Shown: piece by piece, positions 1,044 through 56,471 of the stretch
How positions within the stretch are numbered: the first letter of the stretch is position 1
Layout: each line of letters opens with the position of its first letter
Assembly (NCBI GenBank): GCA_964464735.1
Contig: CAYXKF010000001.1
Span: 35,690-99,689 of the forward strand
Length of the DNA: 64,000 nucleotides
Reading direction: 5' to 3'
Origin: an uncultured Candidatus Saccharibacteria bacterium
Lineage (GTDB): Bacteria; Patescibacteriota; Minisyncoccia; Phycocordibacterales; UBA1006
Notes under the pieces: generated by a model
The model's database searches: none
What the model saw: the letters and a program-made list of their open reading frames with translations, nothing else
What the model was told of the DNA's origin: nothing
Program-made: the position numbers and the translations under genes

Positions 1044-2720
1044 ATGAGTTCTGATATACTTTCTTCTATGAATCAATGCCAAAAGTGCCAAGCGCAATTC
1101 GAGATTACTGCCGACGATAATGCTTTTTATGAAAAAATGGGCGTGCTTGCTCCAACGCTATGCCCCAAATGCCGCGCGCAGCTGCGTTTAAGTTTTCGCA
1201 ATGAACGGGTGTTTTACAAGCGCGTTTGCGACCGTTGTCAAAAGCCGACCATTAGCATGTTTAGCCAAAACAAGCCGTATCCGGTGTGGTGCTATGACTG
1301 CTGGTGGGCGGACGATTGGGATCCTTCGGTATATGGGCAAGACTACGATCCGTCGCGTCCGTTTTTTGAACAATTTAAAAACCTGTATGCACGCGTTCCA
1401 AAGCCGGCGCTTGTTTCGATGCGCGGGGTGAACTGTGAATATTTAAATTATGCAGCCGACAATAAAAACTGCTATATGATTGTTGAAAGTTCGAATAATG
1501 AAGATTGCATTCATTGTTATTGGATCCAGCTTTCAAATAATTTGGTTGATTGTTCGTTTACCAATAAGGTTGAACTTTCGTATGAAAGCGATGATTGCTA
1601 CGATTCGTTTCGCTTACAGTATTGCCGAGGCTGCCACAGCTGCACCGACAGTTACTTTTTATTGAATTGCCGCGGATGTGCCAATTGTGTCGGATGTACC
1701 AACCTTCGTCAAAAGCAATACTGTATTTTTAATGAACAATATTCGAAAGCAGAATACGAAGAAAAACTAAAGTCATTTGGGTTTGATACGACAAGCGGTG
1801 TTGAACAATTTCGTAAACAATTTAATGAATTTGTAAAAAAGCAGCCGCGAAAATATGCCGAAATAACCAATGCGGTTAATTCGACTGGAAACTACATGGT
1901 GAATATAAAAAATAATAAAAACTGTTTTCATTCGTACGATGCCGAAGATAATGTGTATTGCGTGCATGCATGGCGCGGAGCGAAAGATTGCATGGATTGC
2001 AATACGGTAGGGCGCAATGCCGAAAAAATGTACAACACTTTAAATACCGGAATCGACGTGTCCAACTGCATTGGCTGTAGCGTTTGCTGGGGTTCGACTT
2101 TTATGACGTATTGTGTTAATTGCCCAAGCTCGGCAAACTGTTTTGGGTGCGTCGGCATGCGTACCAAAAAGTATGCCATTTTAAATAAACAGTATTCGCC
2201 CGAAGAATATGAAAAATTAAAAGCCCAGATTGTCAGTGACATGAAAGCCCAGGGTGTTTACGGTGATTTTATTCCAAAAGATGTTTCGGCATTTGGGTAT
2301 AACGAATCTTCGGCGGCAATTGAATTTCCGCTTTCTAAAGACGAAGCACTTGCCCAAGGGTTTAAATGGGAGGATACGCCGCGGGGGACATACGACAAAG
2401 AAACCAAACAGTGGAACGATGTTCCTGATTCGATCAACGACATTACTTTTAATGTTGTTCCTGAAATTTTTACCTGCACAAACTGCACCAAAAATTACAA
2501 AATTATTGCAAACGAACTTGCATTTTATAAACGCCTTAATATCCCACTTCCGCAATGTTGCCCAGATTGTCGTCATGAACGGCGACTAAAGGCGCGCGGG
2601 CCAAACGAACTACATACGCGCAGCTGTTCAAACTGCAATGCTTTGGTGCAAACGTCGTATTCAGAAACCGATGTCCCGATTGTGTATTGTGAAGCATGCT
2701 ATAACCAAGCGTTTGCATAA
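1044..2720 (+). CDS. large cysteine-rich protein with terminal zinc-ribbon domains and an internal duplication (function unknown)
   Basis: 558-aa ORF with more than 60 Cys, mostly in CxxC pairs. The N-terminal ~80 aa and C-terminal ~80 aa are homologous, sharing the pattern AFY[EK][KR].....CP.CR...RL..RN. Two ~120-aa internal repeats both end in NLRQKQYCIFNEQYSKAEYEEKLK and MRTKKYAILNKQYSPEEYEKLK. Confidence 0.7.
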   Translation: MSSDILSSMNQCQKCQAQFEITADDNAFYEKMGVLAPTLCPKCRAQLRLSFRNERVFYKRVCDRCQKPTISMFSQNKPYPVWCYDCWWADDWDPSVYGQDYDPSRPFFEQFKNLYARVPKPALVSMRGVNCEYLNYAADNKNCYMIVESSNNEDCIHCYWIQLSNNLVDCSFTNKVELSYESDDCYDSFRLQYCRGCHSCTDSYFLLNCRGCANCVGCTNLRQKQYCIFNEQYSKAEYEEKLKSFGFDTTSGVEQFRKQFNEFVKKQPRKYAEITNAVNSTGNYMVNIKNNKNCFHSYDAEDNVYCVHAWRGAKDCMDCNTVGRNAEKMYNTLNTGIDVSNCIGCSVCWGSTFMTYCVNCPSSANCFGCVGMRTKKYAILNKQYSPEEYEKLKAQIVSDMKAQGVYGDFIPKDVSAFGYNESSAAIEFPLSKDEALAQGFKWEDTPRGTYDKETKQWNDVPDSINDITFNVVPEIFTCTNCTKNYKIIANELAFYKRLNIPLPQCCPDCRHERRLKARGPNELHTRSCSNCNALVQTSYSETDVPIVYCEACYNQAFA

Positions 2721-2757: not shown

Positions 2758-3192
2758 CTAATTATGATGAGGTGTGAATTTTTGGGTTTTTGCAAAAAAG
2801 ATTACTGCTAAGAATATCCATATTGCAGTCGTAGTCTCTGTCCATAGTTCGAACATGCAGCAGTTTTGGTGTGGCAAAATAAAGTAGAATATCCATTTTG
2901 TGGACGGTAAAGCAAAAACAGCACAAAGAAACAAAGTTTCCTTATTGGATGTTTTTAGGTCGTTATCTTTTACTACTCTTTTTTGAAATAAGTACAAGAA
3001 TACGATTGACATGAACATATAAGTGAATGGTTGAAGCAAAAGGGGAAAGTTGCTTAGTTGCCGTGGATCTATACTGAATAGATATCCGAACGTAAGTACA
3101 TTTATTACAGCAATAATAACTCCCGCTTTCCAATGAAATATGAGCTTGCCAGCTCGCAATAAGAAGTCTGACGGTATTTTCTTGGGCACCAT
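2758..3192 (-). CDS. hypothetical membrane protein
   Basis: 144-aa ORF with 3-4 predicted TM helices, convergent with the upstream gene. Confidence 0.4.
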   Translation of the reverse strand: MVPKKIPSDFLLRAGKLIFHWKAGVIIAVINVLTFGYLFSIDPRQLSNFPLLLQPFTYMFMSIVFLYLFQKRVVKDNDLKTSNKETLFLCAVFALPSTKWIFYFILPHQNCCMFELWTETTTAIWIFLAVIFFAKTQKFTPHHN

Positions 3193-5023: not shown

Positions 5024-5659
5024 ATGTTCGAAGGCGTCCGATTTTTGAATGTCGAATATTTTTTTAACAAGATCGCTGATTTTTTTGCGACTGTTTTTGG
5101 TTATTTGTTTGGCCGTACTTCGGGGGGTACCGTTGATGTGTATCACCGCGGATCAGATGGCCTGCTGGAAGTTTCGCGCAGCAGTGGGCAAGGGTATCAT
5201 ATTTTCTTATTTATCGTCGGCTTTATTGCGCTGATGATGATCATTTATTATTTGTACCTTTCGTACGAAATCCGCCAGATGGAAGTCGAGCATGTAAACC
5301 ATTGGCATGCGCCCGAAACGCACCGCACACAGTCGGCCAATCCGCGCCTTCAGCGATGGGAGAAAGTCGTAGGATTATTCAATTCGTCCGACCATACGCA
5401 GTGGCGTCTTGCTATTATTGAAGCTGACACTATGTTAGAGGAATTAATGGAATATCTAGGTTTTGATGGTACTAATTTAGGTGAACGGCTTAAATCGGCA
5501 TCGGTGCGTGTTTTTCCACCGCTTCAAGACGCATGGGAAGTACATAATTTACGTAATCGCTTGGCGCACGAAGGACTTACCTACGACCTGCAGCAAGACG
5601 AAGCAATGCGCGCGCGCAAGATCTACGAAAACCTGTTTCGGGGGTATAATTTTATTTAG
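5024..5659 (+). CDS. membrane-anchored protein with a C-terminal HEPN-like (Rx4H, DUF4145-like) domain
   Basis: 211 aa with one strong TM helix (YHIFLFIVGFIALMMIIYYLYL). The C-terminal helical region WRLAIIEADTMLEEL...AWEVHNLRNRLAHEG contains an R-x4-H motif in the arrangement seen in HEPN/DUF4145 domains. The exact start is uncertain. Confidence 0.5.
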   Translation: MFEGVRFLNVEYFFNKIADFFATVFGYLFGRTSGGTVDVYHRGSDGLLEVSRSSGQGYHIFLFIVGFIALMMIIYYLYLSYEIRQMEVEHVNHWHAPETHRTQSANPRLQRWEKVVGLFNSSDHTQWRLAIIEADTMLEELMEYLGFDGTNLGERLKSASVRVFPPLQDAWEVHNLRNRLAHEGLTYDLQQDEAMRARKIYENLFRGYNFI

Positions 5660-5721: not shown

Positions 5722-5792
5722 AGCGGGGTGGAGTAATGGTAGCTCACCGGGCTCATAACCCGGGGGTGCCCGTTCGAATCGGGCCCCCGCAA
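5722..5792 (+). tRNA. tRNA-fMet (initiator, anticodon CAU)
   Basis: Cloverleaf folded by hand. The anticodon loop is CUCAUAA. Three consecutive G:C pairs at the base of the anticodon stem (GGG/CCC), A11:U24, and a mismatched 1:72 pair (A.A) are initiator hallmarks. The T-loop is TTCGAAT. CCA is not encoded. Confidence 0.8.
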
Positions 5793-5845
5793 CACGATCA
5801 TATTTTCTCGTTGATTTTTTGCCCCGCTTAGGGTATCTTTCTCGT

Positions 5846-5922
5846 GTCGGGGTAGCTCAGTTGGTTAGAGCGTAGCACTCATAAAGCTAAGGTCGGCGGT
5901 TCGATCCCGCCCCTCGACACCA
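5846..5922 (+). tRNA. tRNA with CAU anticodon (elongator Met or lysidine-modified Ile2); 3' CCA encoded
   Basis: Hand-folded with acceptor GTCGGGG/CCTCGAC containing one G.U pair, D-arm GCTCAGTTGGTTAGAGC, anticodon loop CTCATAA, T-arm GGCGGTTCGATCCCGCC, and ACCA at the 3' end. Confidence 0.8.
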
Positions 5923-5976
5923 GCGGTGGATTTTTTGCATACGTATGCTAAGATGCGCCGGTACAATTACATAGAT

Positions 5977-6050
5977 GCAGTCGTAGCTCAACTGGTTAGA
6001 GCACCCGCCTGTCACGCGGGAGGTTGCGGGTTCGAGTCCCGTCGACTGCG
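5977..6050 (+). tRNA. tRNA-Asp (anticodon GUC)
   Basis: Acceptor GCAGTCG/CGACTGC, anticodon loop CTGTCAC, T-arm GCGGGTTCGAGTCCCGT, discriminator G. Confidence 0.85.
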
Positions 6051-6057
6051 CAGAAAG

Positions 6058-9492: not shown

Positions 9493-10206
9493 ATGAAAAA
9501 GCCCATCAAAAAAAATGCCCGTGCAGTATGGAACGCCGAATACGACGAACCGCAATATTTTACGATGTCGATGCAGCAAAGCGCCGAGCTGGGCCGTTTT
9601 GTGCGTTGGCTTAAGAAAGATTCGGGAAATGACATTTTTGAATACATCCGCGCGCTTGATGTTGGCTGCGGAAACGGTCGTAATTTATTGTACCTAGCCG
9701 AAAACTACGGCACAACCGGCATGGGATGCGATTTGTCCGATGTGGCTGTTGCTCAGGCGACCAGAGCGGCAAAAGAACACAACATCAAGGATGTATCATT
9801 TTTTGTACACGACCTTGCCGAAAAGTTTGCACTTGAAGACGCGTCGTTTGATTTAGTGATGGATATGATGGTGTCGCATTGTTTGGATAAAGCTGGGCGT
9901 GAACAATTTATTAAAGAGGTTGTTCGAATGCTAAAGCCTGGCGGATGGTATTTAGTAAAGACCTTCATGAAAGAAGGCGACCAACACGCAAAACGGTTGA
10001 TCGAAAAAAGCCCCGGCACCGAACCTGATTCGTACATTCATCCCCGCCTTGGCGTTATGGAGCATGTGTGGACAGAACAATCACTTCATGAATTTCTGGA
10101 GCCATATTTCAATATAAAATTTACTGTGCGTTCAAGCGGATACCAGCGCTGGAACAACCAGCCATACAAGCGCCGCTACATGGTGGTGTATGCCGAGAAA
10201 AAATAA
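9493..10206 (+). CDS. class I SAM-dependent methyltransferase
   Basis: Motif I LDVGCGNGRN and motif post-I LAEN...GCDLS fit a 237-aa Rossmann-fold MTase. Confidence 0.75.
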   Translation: MKKPIKKNARAVWNAEYDEPQYFTMSMQQSAELGRFVRWLKKDSGNDIFEYIRALDVGCGNGRNLLYLAENYGTTGMGCDLSDVAVAQATRAAKEHNIKDVSFFVHDLAEKFALEDASFDLVMDMMVSHCLDKAGREQFIKEVVRMLKPGGWYLVKTFMKEGDQHAKRLIEKSPGTEPDSYIHPRLGVMEHVWTEQSLHEFLEPYFNIKFTVRSSGYQRWNNQPYKRRYMVVYAEKK

Positions 10207-10209
10207 AAC

Positions 10210-10698
10210 GTGTATAATACAGCTATGAAAATTGAGGAATCATTTAAGAAAATATTAACAAAAACCAGAAAAACTGCCGCCGTCATTACTGCAGTTGGTC
10301 TTAGTGTATTGCCTAAAATAAATGAAGCACAAACTCCCGCGTCAGTGGAAGGATCTCATTATCGAGAGTCGACGACGGTACCTCGTTTTCTTATTGATGC
10401 AGGTGTTTTTGATCCCAGTTTTAAACCTGGTTTTTATGACGAGTTGACCGAAAGAGGTATTCCTTTAGTTGAAAAGCGTATTCAGTATAATCCTGATGGC
10501 TCTATTGCACATTATTATGAAGATGTGCCCGAGCGAGGTATTACCAATATATTTGCCACAGAATATCCTAAAATAGTTTATTTTACTCGGATAAGGCAGC
10601 CTCAAGAAGAAGGCGCAGGAGTATTAGTTGATTATTTTGATAAGACGACAGGAAAACTGCTTGGTACATTGCCTGCAAGATTAACAAAGGATGAATAA
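10210..10698 (+). CDS. hypothetical secreted/membrane-anchored protein
   Basis: 162 aa with an N-terminal signal/anchor ([14 protein letters not shown]). The 3' end overlaps the prfB start by 8 nt. Confidence 0.4.
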
Positions 10699-11566
10699 AG
10701 AAGAAATCCAACAACAAATCGAAGTGCTTGAGGCGAAAATGTATGATCCTGATTTTTGGAATGACAAAGTGCAGGCGCAGCAAGTGCTTAAAGATATCGA
10801 GGATTTAAAGGCAAAACTTGAAGGCGGCGGCATGTACGATAAGGGTCCAGCAGTGCTTTCGATTTTCACCGGCGCGGGTGGCGACGATGCCGAAGATTTT
10901 TCGCGGATGCTTTTTGAAATGTATCAACGCTACATTGAACGCAAAGGGTGGCGATGGGTGGTAGTTGAAGAAAATAAAAACTCAATGGGCGGGTACCGAA
11001 GTTTGACGATCGAGATCGATGGAAAGAACGTTTATGGAACACTTAAAAATGAATCAGGCGTGCATCGGCTGGTGCGTATGTCGCCATTTAATTCGAAGGG
11101 TAAGCGCAACACATCGTTTAGTATGGTTGAAGTTTTACCCAAGTTCGAGAAGCTTGATTTTGTGATTCCTGAAACCGATCTTGAGATTAGCTTTGCCCGA
11201 AGCGGCGGCAAGGGTGGTCAAAACGTCAACAAGCGCGAAACGGCGGTACGCATTGTGCACAAGCCAACAAATTTGTCTGTGCATGCAACGACGCAACGCA
11301 GCCAAGAAGCAAATCGAGAACACGCGATGCAGTTGTTAAGCGCAAAAGTATGGCGGCATGAAGAAGAAAAAGCAAAAGCAGCCGAGCGGGGCATGGCGAT
11401 CAGTGCGACGACCGATAACGAATGGGGAAGCCAGATTCGCAGCTATGTGTTGCATCCGTACCAAATGGTAAAAGACCATCGCACCGGCGTTGAAACTTCA
11501 CAGGTAAGTAAGGTGTTAGATGACGGCGAGTTGGACGAATTTATAGATGCAGAGAAAGATATTTAA
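10691..11566 (+). CDS. prfB: peptide chain release factor 2 (short form, no programmed frameshift)
   Basis: GGQ motif [24 protein letters not shown] and the RF2-specific SPF tripeptide ([10 protein letters not shown]). At 291 aa it lacks ~40 N-terminal residues relative to E. coli RF2. Confidence 0.9.
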
Positions 11567-11600
11567 TATATAATCTCTTATTATATATTACCCTAGCTCT

Positions 11601-41704: not shown

Positions 41705-41776
41705 GGCGTGGTGGCGAAGTGGTAACGCTTCGGTCTGCAAAACCGACATGCGCGGGTTCAATTCCCGCCCACGCCT
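41705..41776 (+). tRNA. tRNA-Cys (anticodon GCA)
   Basis: GGCGTGG-TG-GCGAAGTGGTAACGC-T-TCGGT-CTGCAAA-ACCGA-CATG-CGCGGGTTCAATTCCCGC-CCACGCC with discriminator U. Confidence 0.85.
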
Positions 41777-41824
41777 CAAGGTTGATTTTACGCAGAAATG
41801 CAGTAAGATAGCTTTCGTGTTTAA

Positions 41825-41905
41825 TGCCGGGGTGGTGAAATGGCAGACACACCTGCCTTAGGAGCAGGCGCCGCAAGGCATGGAGGTTCAAGTCCTCTCC
41901 CCGGC
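41825..41905 (+). tRNA. tRNA-Leu (anticodon UAG), class II with long variable arm
   Basis: GCCGGGG-TG-GTGAAATGGCAGACAC-A-CCTGC-CTTAGGA-GCAGG, a long variable arm CGCCGCAAGGCAT, then GGAGGTTCAAGTCCTCT-CCCCGGC with discriminator A. Confidence 0.85.
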
Positions 41906-41931
41906 ACATGTGGAATACACGTATTCCAACA

Positions 41932-42004
41932 TCCGCCCGTAGCTCAGTTGGTAGAGCAGTCGCCTCTTAAGCGAACGGTCCTTGGTTCGAATCCAAGCGG
42001 GCGG
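41932..42004 (+). tRNA. tRNA-Lys (anticodon CUU)
   Basis: CCGCCCG-TA-GCTCAGTTGGTAGAGC-A-GTCGC-CTCTTAA-GCGAA-CGGTC-CTTGGTTCGAATCCAAG-CGGGCGG with discriminator A. There is one mismatch at the top of the anticodon stem. Confidence 0.8.
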
Positions 42005-42015
42005 ACAGACAGTCA

Positions 42016-42098
42016 TGCCCGAGTGGCGGAATGGTTTACGCAGAGGACTTAAAATCCTTCCCCTTCAACGGGTTGTGGGTTCGACTCCCACCTCGGGC
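42016..42098 (+). tRNA. tRNA-Leu (anticodon UAA), class II with long variable arm
   Basis: GCCCGAG-TG-GCGGAATGGTTTACGC-A-GAGGA-CTTAAAA-TCCTT, long variable arm CCCCTTCAACGGGTT, then GTGGGTTCGACTCCCAC-CTCGGGC with discriminator A. It is followed by a T-run. Confidence 0.85.
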
Positions 42099-42099
42099 A

Positions 42100-42423
42100 C
42101 TAGTTTTTTTCTTCGGCTATAAGTCGATAAATAACATCGCGCTTCTTGGCGCCGTCATCAATATGCCATGCGTATGTCTTAGGAAGCATGCCGCGCGTAT
42201 TCTTTTTTAAGTATGTCTTGATATCGACAATATGCTTTTGCAAAAAGCGCAGCGCATCTTTTTCGTACTTTTCGGGTAATACGCTTACACCGACGGTTGC
42301 GTGCGAAATATCCGGCGAAAGTTCAAGGCGTGCGACGGTGATAAGTGAATCACGGTTGGCATTTTTAGTAACCCATTGGGCAATCTGTTTTTGCAATTCT
42401 TTTTCAAGCGCTTCTTTTTTCAT
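42100..42423 (-). CDS. rbfA: ribosome-binding factor A
   Basis: 107 aa. SLITVARLELSPDISHATVGVSVL matches the RbfA core. It sits immediately downstream of infB on the same strand. Confidence 0.8.
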   Translation of the reverse strand: MKKEALEKELQKQIAQWVTKNANRDSLITVARLELSPDISHATVGVSVLPEKYEKDALRFLQKHIVDIKTYLKKNTRGMLPKTYAWHIDDGAKKRDVIYRLIAEEKN

Positions 42424-56391: not shown

Positions 56392-56398
56392 TTTGCTG

Positions 56399-56471
56399 TG
56401 GGTGTGCATGGACTCGAACCATGGACCACCGAGGTATAAGCTCGGCGCTCTACCAACTGAGCTACACACCC
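56399..56471 (-). tRNA. tRNA-Ile with UAU anticodon (AUA decoder), unusual
   Basis: The reverse complement folds as GGGTGTG-TA-GCTCAGTTGGTAGAGC-G-CCGAG-CTTATAC-CTCGG-TGGTC-CATGGTTCGAGTCCATG-CACACCC with discriminator A. The anticodon loop CUUAUAC gives anticodon UAU. Confidence 0.75.

Follow-up and report, generated by a model that had tools for sequence, protein, structure and literature searches.

A cysteine-rich protein family of Patescibacteria with terminal treble-clef finger pairs, a duplicated core and gene linkage to VirD4-like ATPases

What is a protein crowded with CxxC motifs built from, and what might it do? The question is raised by a gene in a 64,000-nucleotide stretch of DNA from an uncultured Candidatus Saccharibacteria bacterium (contig CAYXKF010000001.1, positions 35,690–99,689), referred to here as the window. 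An initial annotation, made from the letters alone, had placed a 558-residue open reading frame (ORF) at positions 1044–2720 of the forward strand, and the frame is present there together with all the peptide strings quoted from it. The analysis described below shows that the encoded protein carries a pair of Cys4 finger motifs at each end of a duplicated core, and that it belongs to a large family of Patescibacteria whose genes form tandem arrays, in part next to genes of VirD4/TraD-like coupling ATPases. Tentatively, we take the family members to be scaffolds, adaptors or clients of such ATPases.

Terminal finger modules and a duplicated core

The protein contains 42 cysteines (7.5% of its residues), not the more than 60 first counted; the core contains 25 of them, the N-terminal module 8 and the C-terminal module 9. 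The enrichment in CxxC is genuine: there are 19 pairs, compared with 3.06 ± 1.63 in 20,000 shuffled sequences, which never attained that number. Of the 42 cysteines, 34 take part in at least one pair. The two ends of the protein are homologous to one another, as had been proposed (residues ~1–100 versus ~466–558; BLASTP E = 1e-14, 25% identity over 87 residues; Smith–Waterman z = 18.7, the observed score being reached by 0 of 1000 shuffles). The proposed duplication of the core is equally well founded (residues 132–245 versus 283–394; E = 2e-16, 34% identity, z = 17.9 against shuffles), so that both duplications lie far above the shuffled controls. The view that the whole protein falls into no characterized family also stands: the only domain matches are weak ones of the termini to zf_Tbcl and zf_Tbcl_2, and the names supplied with the family members by their sources are all 'hypothetical protein'.

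Each terminal module comprises two fingers in tandem. Residues 11–46 align with Pfam PF13451 (zf_Tbcl) at E = 6.2e-5 and 23.3 bits, compared with a gathering cut-off of 24 bits; the homolog P0020 scores 30.5 bits, and 35 of 80 diverse paralogs match at E ≤ 0.1 (best 2.6e-9). PF23477 (zf_Tbcl_2) is matched by 29 of the 80 paralogs (best 7.2e-7), and the homolog P0077, with 26.5 bits, falls just short of the 27-bit cut-off. The query itself yields no PF23477 or TIGR04272 match at E ≤ 10 in Pfam and NCBIfam; its two second fingers have the exact CxxC-x17-CxxC spacing (Table 1). The CxxC-x17-CxxC domain (TIGR04272) binds zinc in small proteins of Methanosarcina mazei, as determined by inductively coupled plasma mass spectrometry (PMC12704099). 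Sequence searches of the PDB with the single sequence and two profiles returned terminal-finger matches only.

Conservation was assessed in an alignment of 203 full-length family members from 82 genomic loci. The ligand cysteines are conserved at 99–100% in N-terminal finger 1, 69–83% in N-terminal finger 2, 90–98% in C-terminal finger 1 and 99–100% in C-terminal finger 2. The tetrad of N-terminal finger 2 is lost all-or-none in about 31% of the paralogs (phi = 1.0 among C65, C83 and C86), and C481, C506 and C509 are lost together (phi 0.8–0.94). Because the 16 terminal cysteines are highly conserved and disappear only as whole sets, they are predicted to form four Cys4 zinc sites, of a type proven to bind zinc in other proteins. 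In an AlphaFold2 model computed from 143 orthologs and paralogs (predicted local distance difference test score, pLDDT, 88.5; predicted template modelling score 0.89), the first CxxC of a finger is placed in a β-hairpin knuckle and the second at the N-terminus of a helix, as in a treble clef. The modelled C12/C15 knuckle of N-terminal finger 1 lies between strands 8–11 and 18–21, and C40/C43 opens helix 41–49; in C-terminal finger 1, C478/C481 is located between short strands and C506/C509 at helix 507–518. Phage proteins annotated as 'putative zinc-ribbon domain' superpose on one finger at 0.7–1.6 Å over 41–44 residues with a probability of at least 0.99. The initial annotation had described the ends as zinc ribbons; they are indeed homologous modules of a zinc-binding type, but the Pfam names and the modelled knuckle-plus-helix assign them to the treble-clef fingers instead.

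The core had been suspected of being a multi-zinc or Fe-S scaffold, and its cysteines behave differently. Most of them are 11–60% conserved, are substituted by Ser, Val, Ala, Thr or Leu, and co-occur weakly in pairs (phi mostly below 0.5). All Cys-bearing columns from 131 to 218 fall on a single 3-residue register, which also reaches columns that are mostly Ser or Val. The Fourier power of Cys plus Ser at period 3 is 30.6 in core repeat 1 (5000 shuffles: mean 1.0, maximum 7.5) and 7.7 in core repeat 2, a value equalled by 3 of 5000 shuffles and reduced because indels shift the register; the termini and the linker give no period-3 signal. The metal-cluster core is therefore unsupported, as its cysteines are interchangeable with Ser, Val and Ala, follow period 3 and belong to a modelled β-solenoid. 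A better-conserved subset (C215 94%, C369 89%, C212 84%, C209 80%, C218 79% and C360 78%) might supply an additional site in each core half, from C209, C212, C215 and C218 in the first half and C360 and C369 in the second.

The modelled core repeat 1 has 4-residue strands at 6-residue intervals. Foldseek comparison with the PDB yielded, in the top ~50, almost exclusively left-handed β-helix proteins (LpxD, LpxA, GlmU, DapD, PglD, eIF2B and γ-carbonic anhydrase), each at a non-significant score, and hexapeptide-repeat proteins recur among the matches in the viral library BFVD. Taken together, the period-3 ladder, the modelled strands and the left-handed β-helix matches lead us to read the core as two β-solenoid halves. 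According to the model, the inward ladder would be lined by small Cys, Ser and Val residues, with the cysteines mostly not acting as metal ligands, and each half would be capped by the conserved strand-plus-helix motif that the initial annotation had noticed at the ends of the repeats. The resemblance to the left-handed β-helix is one of fold class and not of membership, because the hexapeptide motif and a conserved catalytic His are absent: Pfam Hexapep matches neither the query nor the 80 paralogs, period-6 power is negligible, and no His is conserved at 90% or more across the family. An acyltransferase-like enzyme is ruled out for the same reason. Searches of Pfam, NCBIfam, PADLOC and PDB sequences produced no family match for the ~375-residue core; in PHROGs, core repeat 1 matches phrog_15341, a family of unknown function, weakly (E = 0.0025).

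The acidic linker that precedes the C-terminal fingers ranks among the best-conserved parts of the protein. Its near-invariant residues are G407, P411, Y419, N420, W442 and P461, and the family motif reads SPFxYNET..FPLTKEEA..G..W.D. The terminal modules are basic (average net charges of +2.4 and +4.3), whereas core repeat 1 and the linker are acidic. A transmembrane (TM) segment occurs in none of the 203 members (0/203). Our confidence in this structural description, taken as a whole, is high.

Table 1 Features of the cysteine-rich gene and its product (nucleotide positions refer to the window).
Feature	Residues	Position	Strand	Basis
Complete ORF, 558 residues plus stop; belongs to 'A/F', the single-copy subfamily of the Cys-rich family in Patescibacteria	1–558	1044–2720	+	
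N-terminal finger 1, Cys12, 15, 40, 43; zf_Tbcl-type treble clef (predicted), then Arg-rich helix	11–52	1074–1199	+	PF13451, conservation, model
N-terminal finger 2, Cys62, 65, 83, 86; zf_Tbcl_2-like	58–90	1215–1313	+	Spacing C62-x2-C65-x17-C83-x2-C86; homologs match PF23477
Conserved connector with helix; F107, Q110, P119 near-invariant	94–125	1323–1418	+	Conservation, model
Core repeat 1, predicted β-solenoid with period-3 Cys/Ser/Val ladder; ends in NLRQKQYCIFNEQYSKAEYEEKLK (strand plus helix cap)	126–245	1419–1778	+	Repeat, Fourier, model
Helical linker between core repeats, poorly conserved	246–278	1779–1877	+	Conservation, model
Core repeat 2, predicted second solenoid half; ends in MRTKKYAILNKQYSPEEYEKLK plus long helix	279–403	1878–2252	+	Repeat, Fourier, model
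Acidic, highly conserved linker	404–470	2253–2453	+	Conservation; mean net charge −7; pLDDT >90
C-terminal finger 1, Cys478, 481, 506, 509; zf_Tbcl-type treble clef (predicted) plus Arg-rich helix	474–520	2463–2603	+	N-module homology, conservation, model
C-terminal finger 2, Cys528, 531, 549, 552; homologous to the finger of T ATPases encoded beside the arrays elsewhere	524–556	2613–2711	+	Spacing C528-x2-C531-x17-C549-x2-C552; PF23477 in homologs
Terminator-like GC-rich hairpin, 9 nt past the stop codon		2729–2746	+	Consensus match only

Family, paralog arrays and neighbouring coupling ATPases

The family is large. A word-indexed search returned at least 6,694 matches, an exhaustive search of 50%-identity representatives gave 3,791 clusters at E ≤ 1e-3, of which 1,524 have E ≤ 1e-30, and a profile search added a further 6,565 matches; among the 150 representatives listed, nearly all are 520–600 residues long and align from end to end. 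A scan of one genome per species located at least 464 family loci, all in lineages of the Patescibacteria (Paceibacteria, Nomura-, Lipton-, Jorgensen-, Staskawicz-, Harrison- and Uhrbacteria, Gracilibacteria and Peribacteria), the group also known as the candidate phyla radiation (CPR), to which the initial annotation had guessed a link. The exception by label is locus L013 on the 276,871-bp contig JAMPXW010000001.1, named 'Burkholderiales bacterium', which carries a 61%-identical ortholog and a paralog and is probably a mis-binned Patescibacteria contig. Many of the 'Candidatus Saccharibacteria' labels of third-party annotation records may be generic too. A phage origin is ruled out by the lack of relatives in IMG/VR and INPHARED, and a known defence system by the lack of a PADLOC match to the protein. 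The exact protein sequence had no match in the contig index. No description of the family was found in the literature on treble-clef, zinc-ribbon and cysteine-rich proteins of Patescibacteria or CPR.

The 82 loci contain 245 family ORFs, and every one of the 245 shares the strand of the index copy of its locus. One 17-kb locus has 9 copies, the maximum seen, and on a Staskawiczbacteria contig two overlapping loci add up to about 13 copies within about 33 kb. The median intergenic gap of 123 consecutive array pairs is 7 nt, with 36% of the pairs overlapping and 84% no more than 60 nt apart; owing to these short gaps and overlaps the arrays look operon-like. The paralogs are ancient, judging by their sequences: identity to the most similar copy in the same genome is 42% in the median and at most 58%, that to the most similar copy in a different genome is 59% in the median, and 96% of the members have their closest relative outside their own genome. 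A recent or diversifying expansion is ruled out, as within-genome pairs never exceed 58% identity. A fixed-order operon for a defined complex is unsupported, since the order of subfamilies in the arrays varies. The gene in the window belongs to the A/F subfamily, whose 48 members come from 48 different loci and are 50–70% identical across lineages; no other subfamily is strictly single-copy.

Several further observations concern the arrays. Several members are broken into a pair of neighbouring ORFs, such as 118 + 443 or 376 + 161 residues (L056 57–1741 / L058 15220–16985, L011 1555–3237, L054 4819–6491 and L057 3996–5714), and these are likely frameshifted pseudogenes or assembly errors. A protein of ~90 residues ('s90') with a predicted C-terminal membrane hairpin and no Pfam or NCBIfam match is encoded immediately upstream of or inside the arrays at five loci (L036 6298–6570, L033, L041, L045 and L073). 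A CutA-like gene, of a family associated with divalent-cation tolerance (NCBIfam E = 4.6e-16), is found beside family genes or the ATPase gene T described next at seven loci (L040 9732–10169 and six others, e.g. L030, L031, L039, L069 and L072); such a neighbour is suggestive given the zinc content predicted for the family, but may reflect lineage synteny.

The commonest neighbour of the arrays is a P-loop ATPase, designated T, which matches TrwB_AAD_bind, TraG-D_C, DUF87 and T4SS-DNA_transf and is TraD/VirD4-like in NCBIfam. T was found in 23 of the 82 loci; among the 39 that have three or more family copies, 17 contain it. All 29 T genes share the strand of the array, often at both of its ends, and they are directly adjacent to a family gene in 16 cases, one gene away in 10 and two genes away in 3. 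The enrichment corresponds to a binomial P of about 1e-16 relative to a rough expectation of 2.9%, calculated for two type IV coupling proteins (T4CPs) per 1-Mb genome. Long T variants carry a zf_Tbcl_2/TIGR04272 finger (E about 3e-12), and hidden Markov models derived from the second fingers of the family matched only T proteins among 807 neighbour proteins. Short T is preceded by a membrane protein of ~500 residues, M, and a membrane protein of ~190 residues, m. M and T resemble a split membrane-anchored coupling protein because they match the N- and C-terminal parts of one phage-family profile, phrog_5156. In four genomes (L030, L031, L046 and L062; first ~3.5 kb), secD, secF and a sigma70_r4/HARE-HTH gene are located directly upstream of M-m-T and the arrays.

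The short T proteins, which follow M and m, comprise ~480–490 residues; the long ones, of 590–1030 residues, possess the CxxC-x17-CxxC finger and a long low-complexity tail that is Pro-rich or charged. Examples of the two kinds come from L001 (2212–4353, a long T, and 10121–11569), L012, L016, L058 and L062, in agreement with PMC12102498, where about two T4CPs are reported for each genome. That survey counted 5,713 VirD4-like T4CPs in 2,918 Patescibacteria genomes, of which 148 were near virB4, and its authors suggest exaptation; the Cys-rich family is not mentioned in it (PMC12102498).

Possible functions

The best overall reading of these data is, we infer, that the family members are zinc-stabilized scaffolds or adaptors, or else clients, of orphan coupling ATPases. 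We assign it a probability of about 0.4, because the structural description is strong but the functional link to an ATPase is modest for this particular gene. The protein would be soluble, cytoplasmic and tripartite. Each end would form a basic pair of tandem treble-clef fingers, with four structural Cys4 zinc sites in total, and the middle a duplicated β-solenoid, in which Cys would serve as a small inward-facing ladder residue and the outer surface varies across the family; the acidic conserved linker would precede the C-terminal fingers. Members would act together with the orphan VirD4/TraD-type ATPases of Patescibacteria. One of the terminal finger modules is common to the ATPase, and these modules may offer a shared handle for docking or for binding a ligand; the specificity of each paralog may stem from its variable solenoid faces. 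A more far-reaching proposal, which we consider somewhat unlikely, is that the arrays and the split membrane-anchored M-m-T ATPase constitute an unrecognized machine present throughout Patescibacteria, in which exapted ATPases move or remodel dozens of ancient paralogous clients. Such a machine could mediate contact-dependent delivery into host cells or DNA and nucleoprotein trafficking, processes that are both central to the episymbiotic lifestyle.

A number of observations weigh against the scaffold, adaptor or client role. Within the 64-kb window there is no second family copy, T ATPase gene or M gene, and the A/F subfamily often stands alone among housekeeping genes (ligA/gatCAB here, holB/frr and argS/ileS elsewhere); the ATPase link is thus strongest for the paralog arrays and not for this gene. 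No T lies within about 8 kb in 59 of the 82 loci, the expected frequency of T is rough (two T per 1-Mb genome were assumed), and the loci are phylogenetically non-independent. Folded zinc domains would make awkward cargo for a type IV secretion system (T4SS), and the 55–70% conservation across orders, together with the ancient orthologous subfamilies, speaks against fast-evolving secreted effectors. As to the fold, the individual left-handed β-helix matches have E values of 0.26–2.7 and low TM-scores, and the assignment of the core depends on one AlphaFold model, since all fold matches have E ≥ 0.26. The weakest region of that model is residues 170–230 (pLDDT 63–75), and the 3-residue register of the solenoid is at odds with the canonical hexapeptide motif.

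The same data bear on four other explanations. That family members are secreted or translocated effectors, handed by a VirD4-like ATPase to the T4SS for host delivery, strikes us as unlikely; the basic C-terminal fingers would then be the signal, by analogy with XVIPCD-bearing Xanthomonas T4SS effectors. T4CP-like ATPases do adjoin the arrays, often at both ends, secD/secF lie upstream of M-m-T in four loci, the conserved termini and variable body look like a signal-plus-payload design, and, as the proteins have no Sec signal or TM segment, export would require a dedicated route. The paralogs, however, are conserved across species (between-genome median 59%), ancient and without recent expansion, which is atypical for effectors; four tight zinc sites would need unfolding for passage, and no toxin or enzyme domain is detectable in Pfam, PADLOC or the 80 paralogs. 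The T4SS is reported to be essential for epibiotic growth in Saccharimonadia, yet most Patescibacteria T4CPs are not near virB4 and the T4CP is non-essential in S. epibionticum (PMC12102498). A role in nucleic-acid handling is unlikely as well. The basic fingers would bind DNA or RNA and work with T, an ATPase of the FtsK/HerA superfamily, in DNA translocation during uptake, export or segregation, which would suit the Arg-rich helices right behind the second CxxC of the basic terminal modules and the TrwB DNA-binding and T4SS-DNA_transf domains of T. The gene or its orthologs are near ligA, holB, ftsK or recA in some genomes, but these DNA-related neighbours vary between loci; many DNA-binding zinc-finger proteins are among the Foldseek matches, all of them non-significant, and known nucleic-acid-binding domains give no significant match. 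The core and linker are acidic, and a weak similarity of the fingers to LIM domains favours protein–protein interaction.

It is very unlikely that the protein is a multi-metal redox or electron-transfer scaffold holding many Zn or Fe-S centres, with the core CxxC motifs also ligating metals. The 25 core cysteines, many in CxxC runs, and the subset conserved at 78–94% (C209–C218, C360 and C369) would be accounted for, but the poor conservation and weak co-occurrence of most core cysteines contrast with the all-or-none terminal tetrads, and the period-3 register includes mostly Ser/Val columns. No ferredoxin, radical-SAM or SPASM match and no conserved CxxCxxCxxxC motif was found in Pfam, NCBIfam and the 80 paralogs. 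There is likewise a slim chance of a hetero-oligomeric structural or cytoskeletal assembly, in which co-transcribed paralogs stack or trimerize through their solenoids into an intracellular structure peculiar to Patescibacteria and the adjacency of the ATPase is incidental. Solenoid folds commonly oligomerize, as in left-handed β-helix trimers and bactofilin filaments, the operon-like arrays with overlapping genes suggest co-expression in fixed ratios, and the subfamilies are ancient and conserved. Copy number and subfamily order nonetheless differ widely among genomes, unlike a fixed stoichiometry, and the single-copy A/F member is often alone.

Genomic surroundings and comparison with known systems

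The start codon of the Cys-rich gene is uncertain, ATG 1044 or the alternative ATG 1068 (Met9), and a clear Shine–Dalgarno sequence is absent ahead of both. The gene is probably monocistronic in the window because the genes on both flanks sit on the opposite strand. These bracketing genes encode membrane proteins weakly similar to ThrE (363–980, − strand; E = 0.005) and ThrE_2 (2758–3192, − strand; E = 0.03). The ThrE and ThrE_2 families are usually found as an adjacent pair, and the Cys-rich gene may thus separate the members of such a pair. By inspection, the 3' end of a ligA-like gene with a BRCT-like C-terminus lies upstream, and gatC- and gatA-like genes, named from their translations, lie downstream. 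Just past gatA, a 211-residue ORF with an N-terminal TM region (5024–5659, + strand) encodes a distant homolog of m, the small membrane protein found between M and T in other genomes (25% identity, tblastn E = 3e-6). ARAGORN identified a tRNA-Ile with the anticodon TAT (UAU), which is uncommon in bacteria, at 56398–56471 (− strand), and two tandem CAT-anticodon tRNAs called as Met at 5722–5793 and 5846–5922 (+ strand), one of which could be an initiator or lysidine-type Ile tRNA. More tRNA clusters occur at 5722–6051 and 41705–42100.

The four terminal fingers share their Cys4 layout with zf_Tbcl, zf_Tbcl_2 and TIGR04272, and many family members score above or close to the thresholds of these models. 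Proteins of those families are stand-alone small proteins or carry single appended fingers, and their function is unknown, whereas here two finger types occur in tandem and are duplicated at both ends of a ~375-residue core. The LIM domain, exemplified by CRP1 (PDB accession numbers 1CTL and 1B8T), likewise combines two consecutive treble-clef-like zinc sites in one compact module. A marginal match to the second LIM finger was obtained with the C-terminal finger 2 profile (E = 1.2e-3, one finger only), and Pfam PF00412 (LIM) has weak matches in 7 of the 80 paralogs (best 0.0038). The candidate ligands of the family are all Cys, with no His or Asp, in contrast to the C2HC + C4/C2HD pattern of LIM. 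LIM is a eukaryotic protein-interaction module, and common descent with the fingers of the family is unsupported.

The likeness of the core to LpxA, LpxD, GlmU, DapD, PglD and γ-carbonic anhydrase lies in the modelled 4-residue strands every 6 residues; on our own inspection, an 18-residue coil register with an N/D corner, as in the left-handed β-helix, also fits the core sequence. Hexapeptide transferases follow the pattern [LIV]-[GAED]-X2-[STAV]-X and have catalytic His/Asp residues at the trimer interface, whereas the family core repeats its inward positions every 3 residues and has no conserved His. A second comparison is with the Tenebrio molitor antifreeze protein (TmAFP), a narrow, Cys-laddered β-helix with the repeat TCTxSxxCxxAx, in which Cys, Ser or Ala occupies every third position inside. 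TmAFP is secreted and disulfide-bonded with 12-residue coils, and its CxxC runs arise from the register, not from metal binding. It was not retrieved by Foldseek or hidden Markov model searches with the family, whose members are predicted to be cytoplasmic and whose cysteines are replaceable. The family is in this respect a cautionary case: dense CxxC need not mean metal clusters, and most of the CxxC here would stem from the 3-residue solenoid register. The ~375-residue core merits a domain family of its own.

The T genes flanking the arrays are like the orphan T4CPs of PMC12102498, being of VirD4/TraD type and not linked to virB4. Published work leaves open what the thousands of orphan VirD4-like ATPases of Patescibacteria do, and the linkage described here supplies a concrete candidate partner for them. 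That some of these very small genomes devote tens of kb to the arrays implies a function that is important and specific to the lineage. For VirB2, too, Patescibacteria maintain divergent paralogs in tandem arrays (PMC12102498); VirB2 pilins are small and secreted, however, whereas the Cys-rich proteins have ~560 residues and are predicted to be cytoplasmic and to bind zinc. Treble-clef fingers and β-solenoids are known as kinds, while the architecture, the family and its link to orphan coupling ATPases appear to be undescribed.

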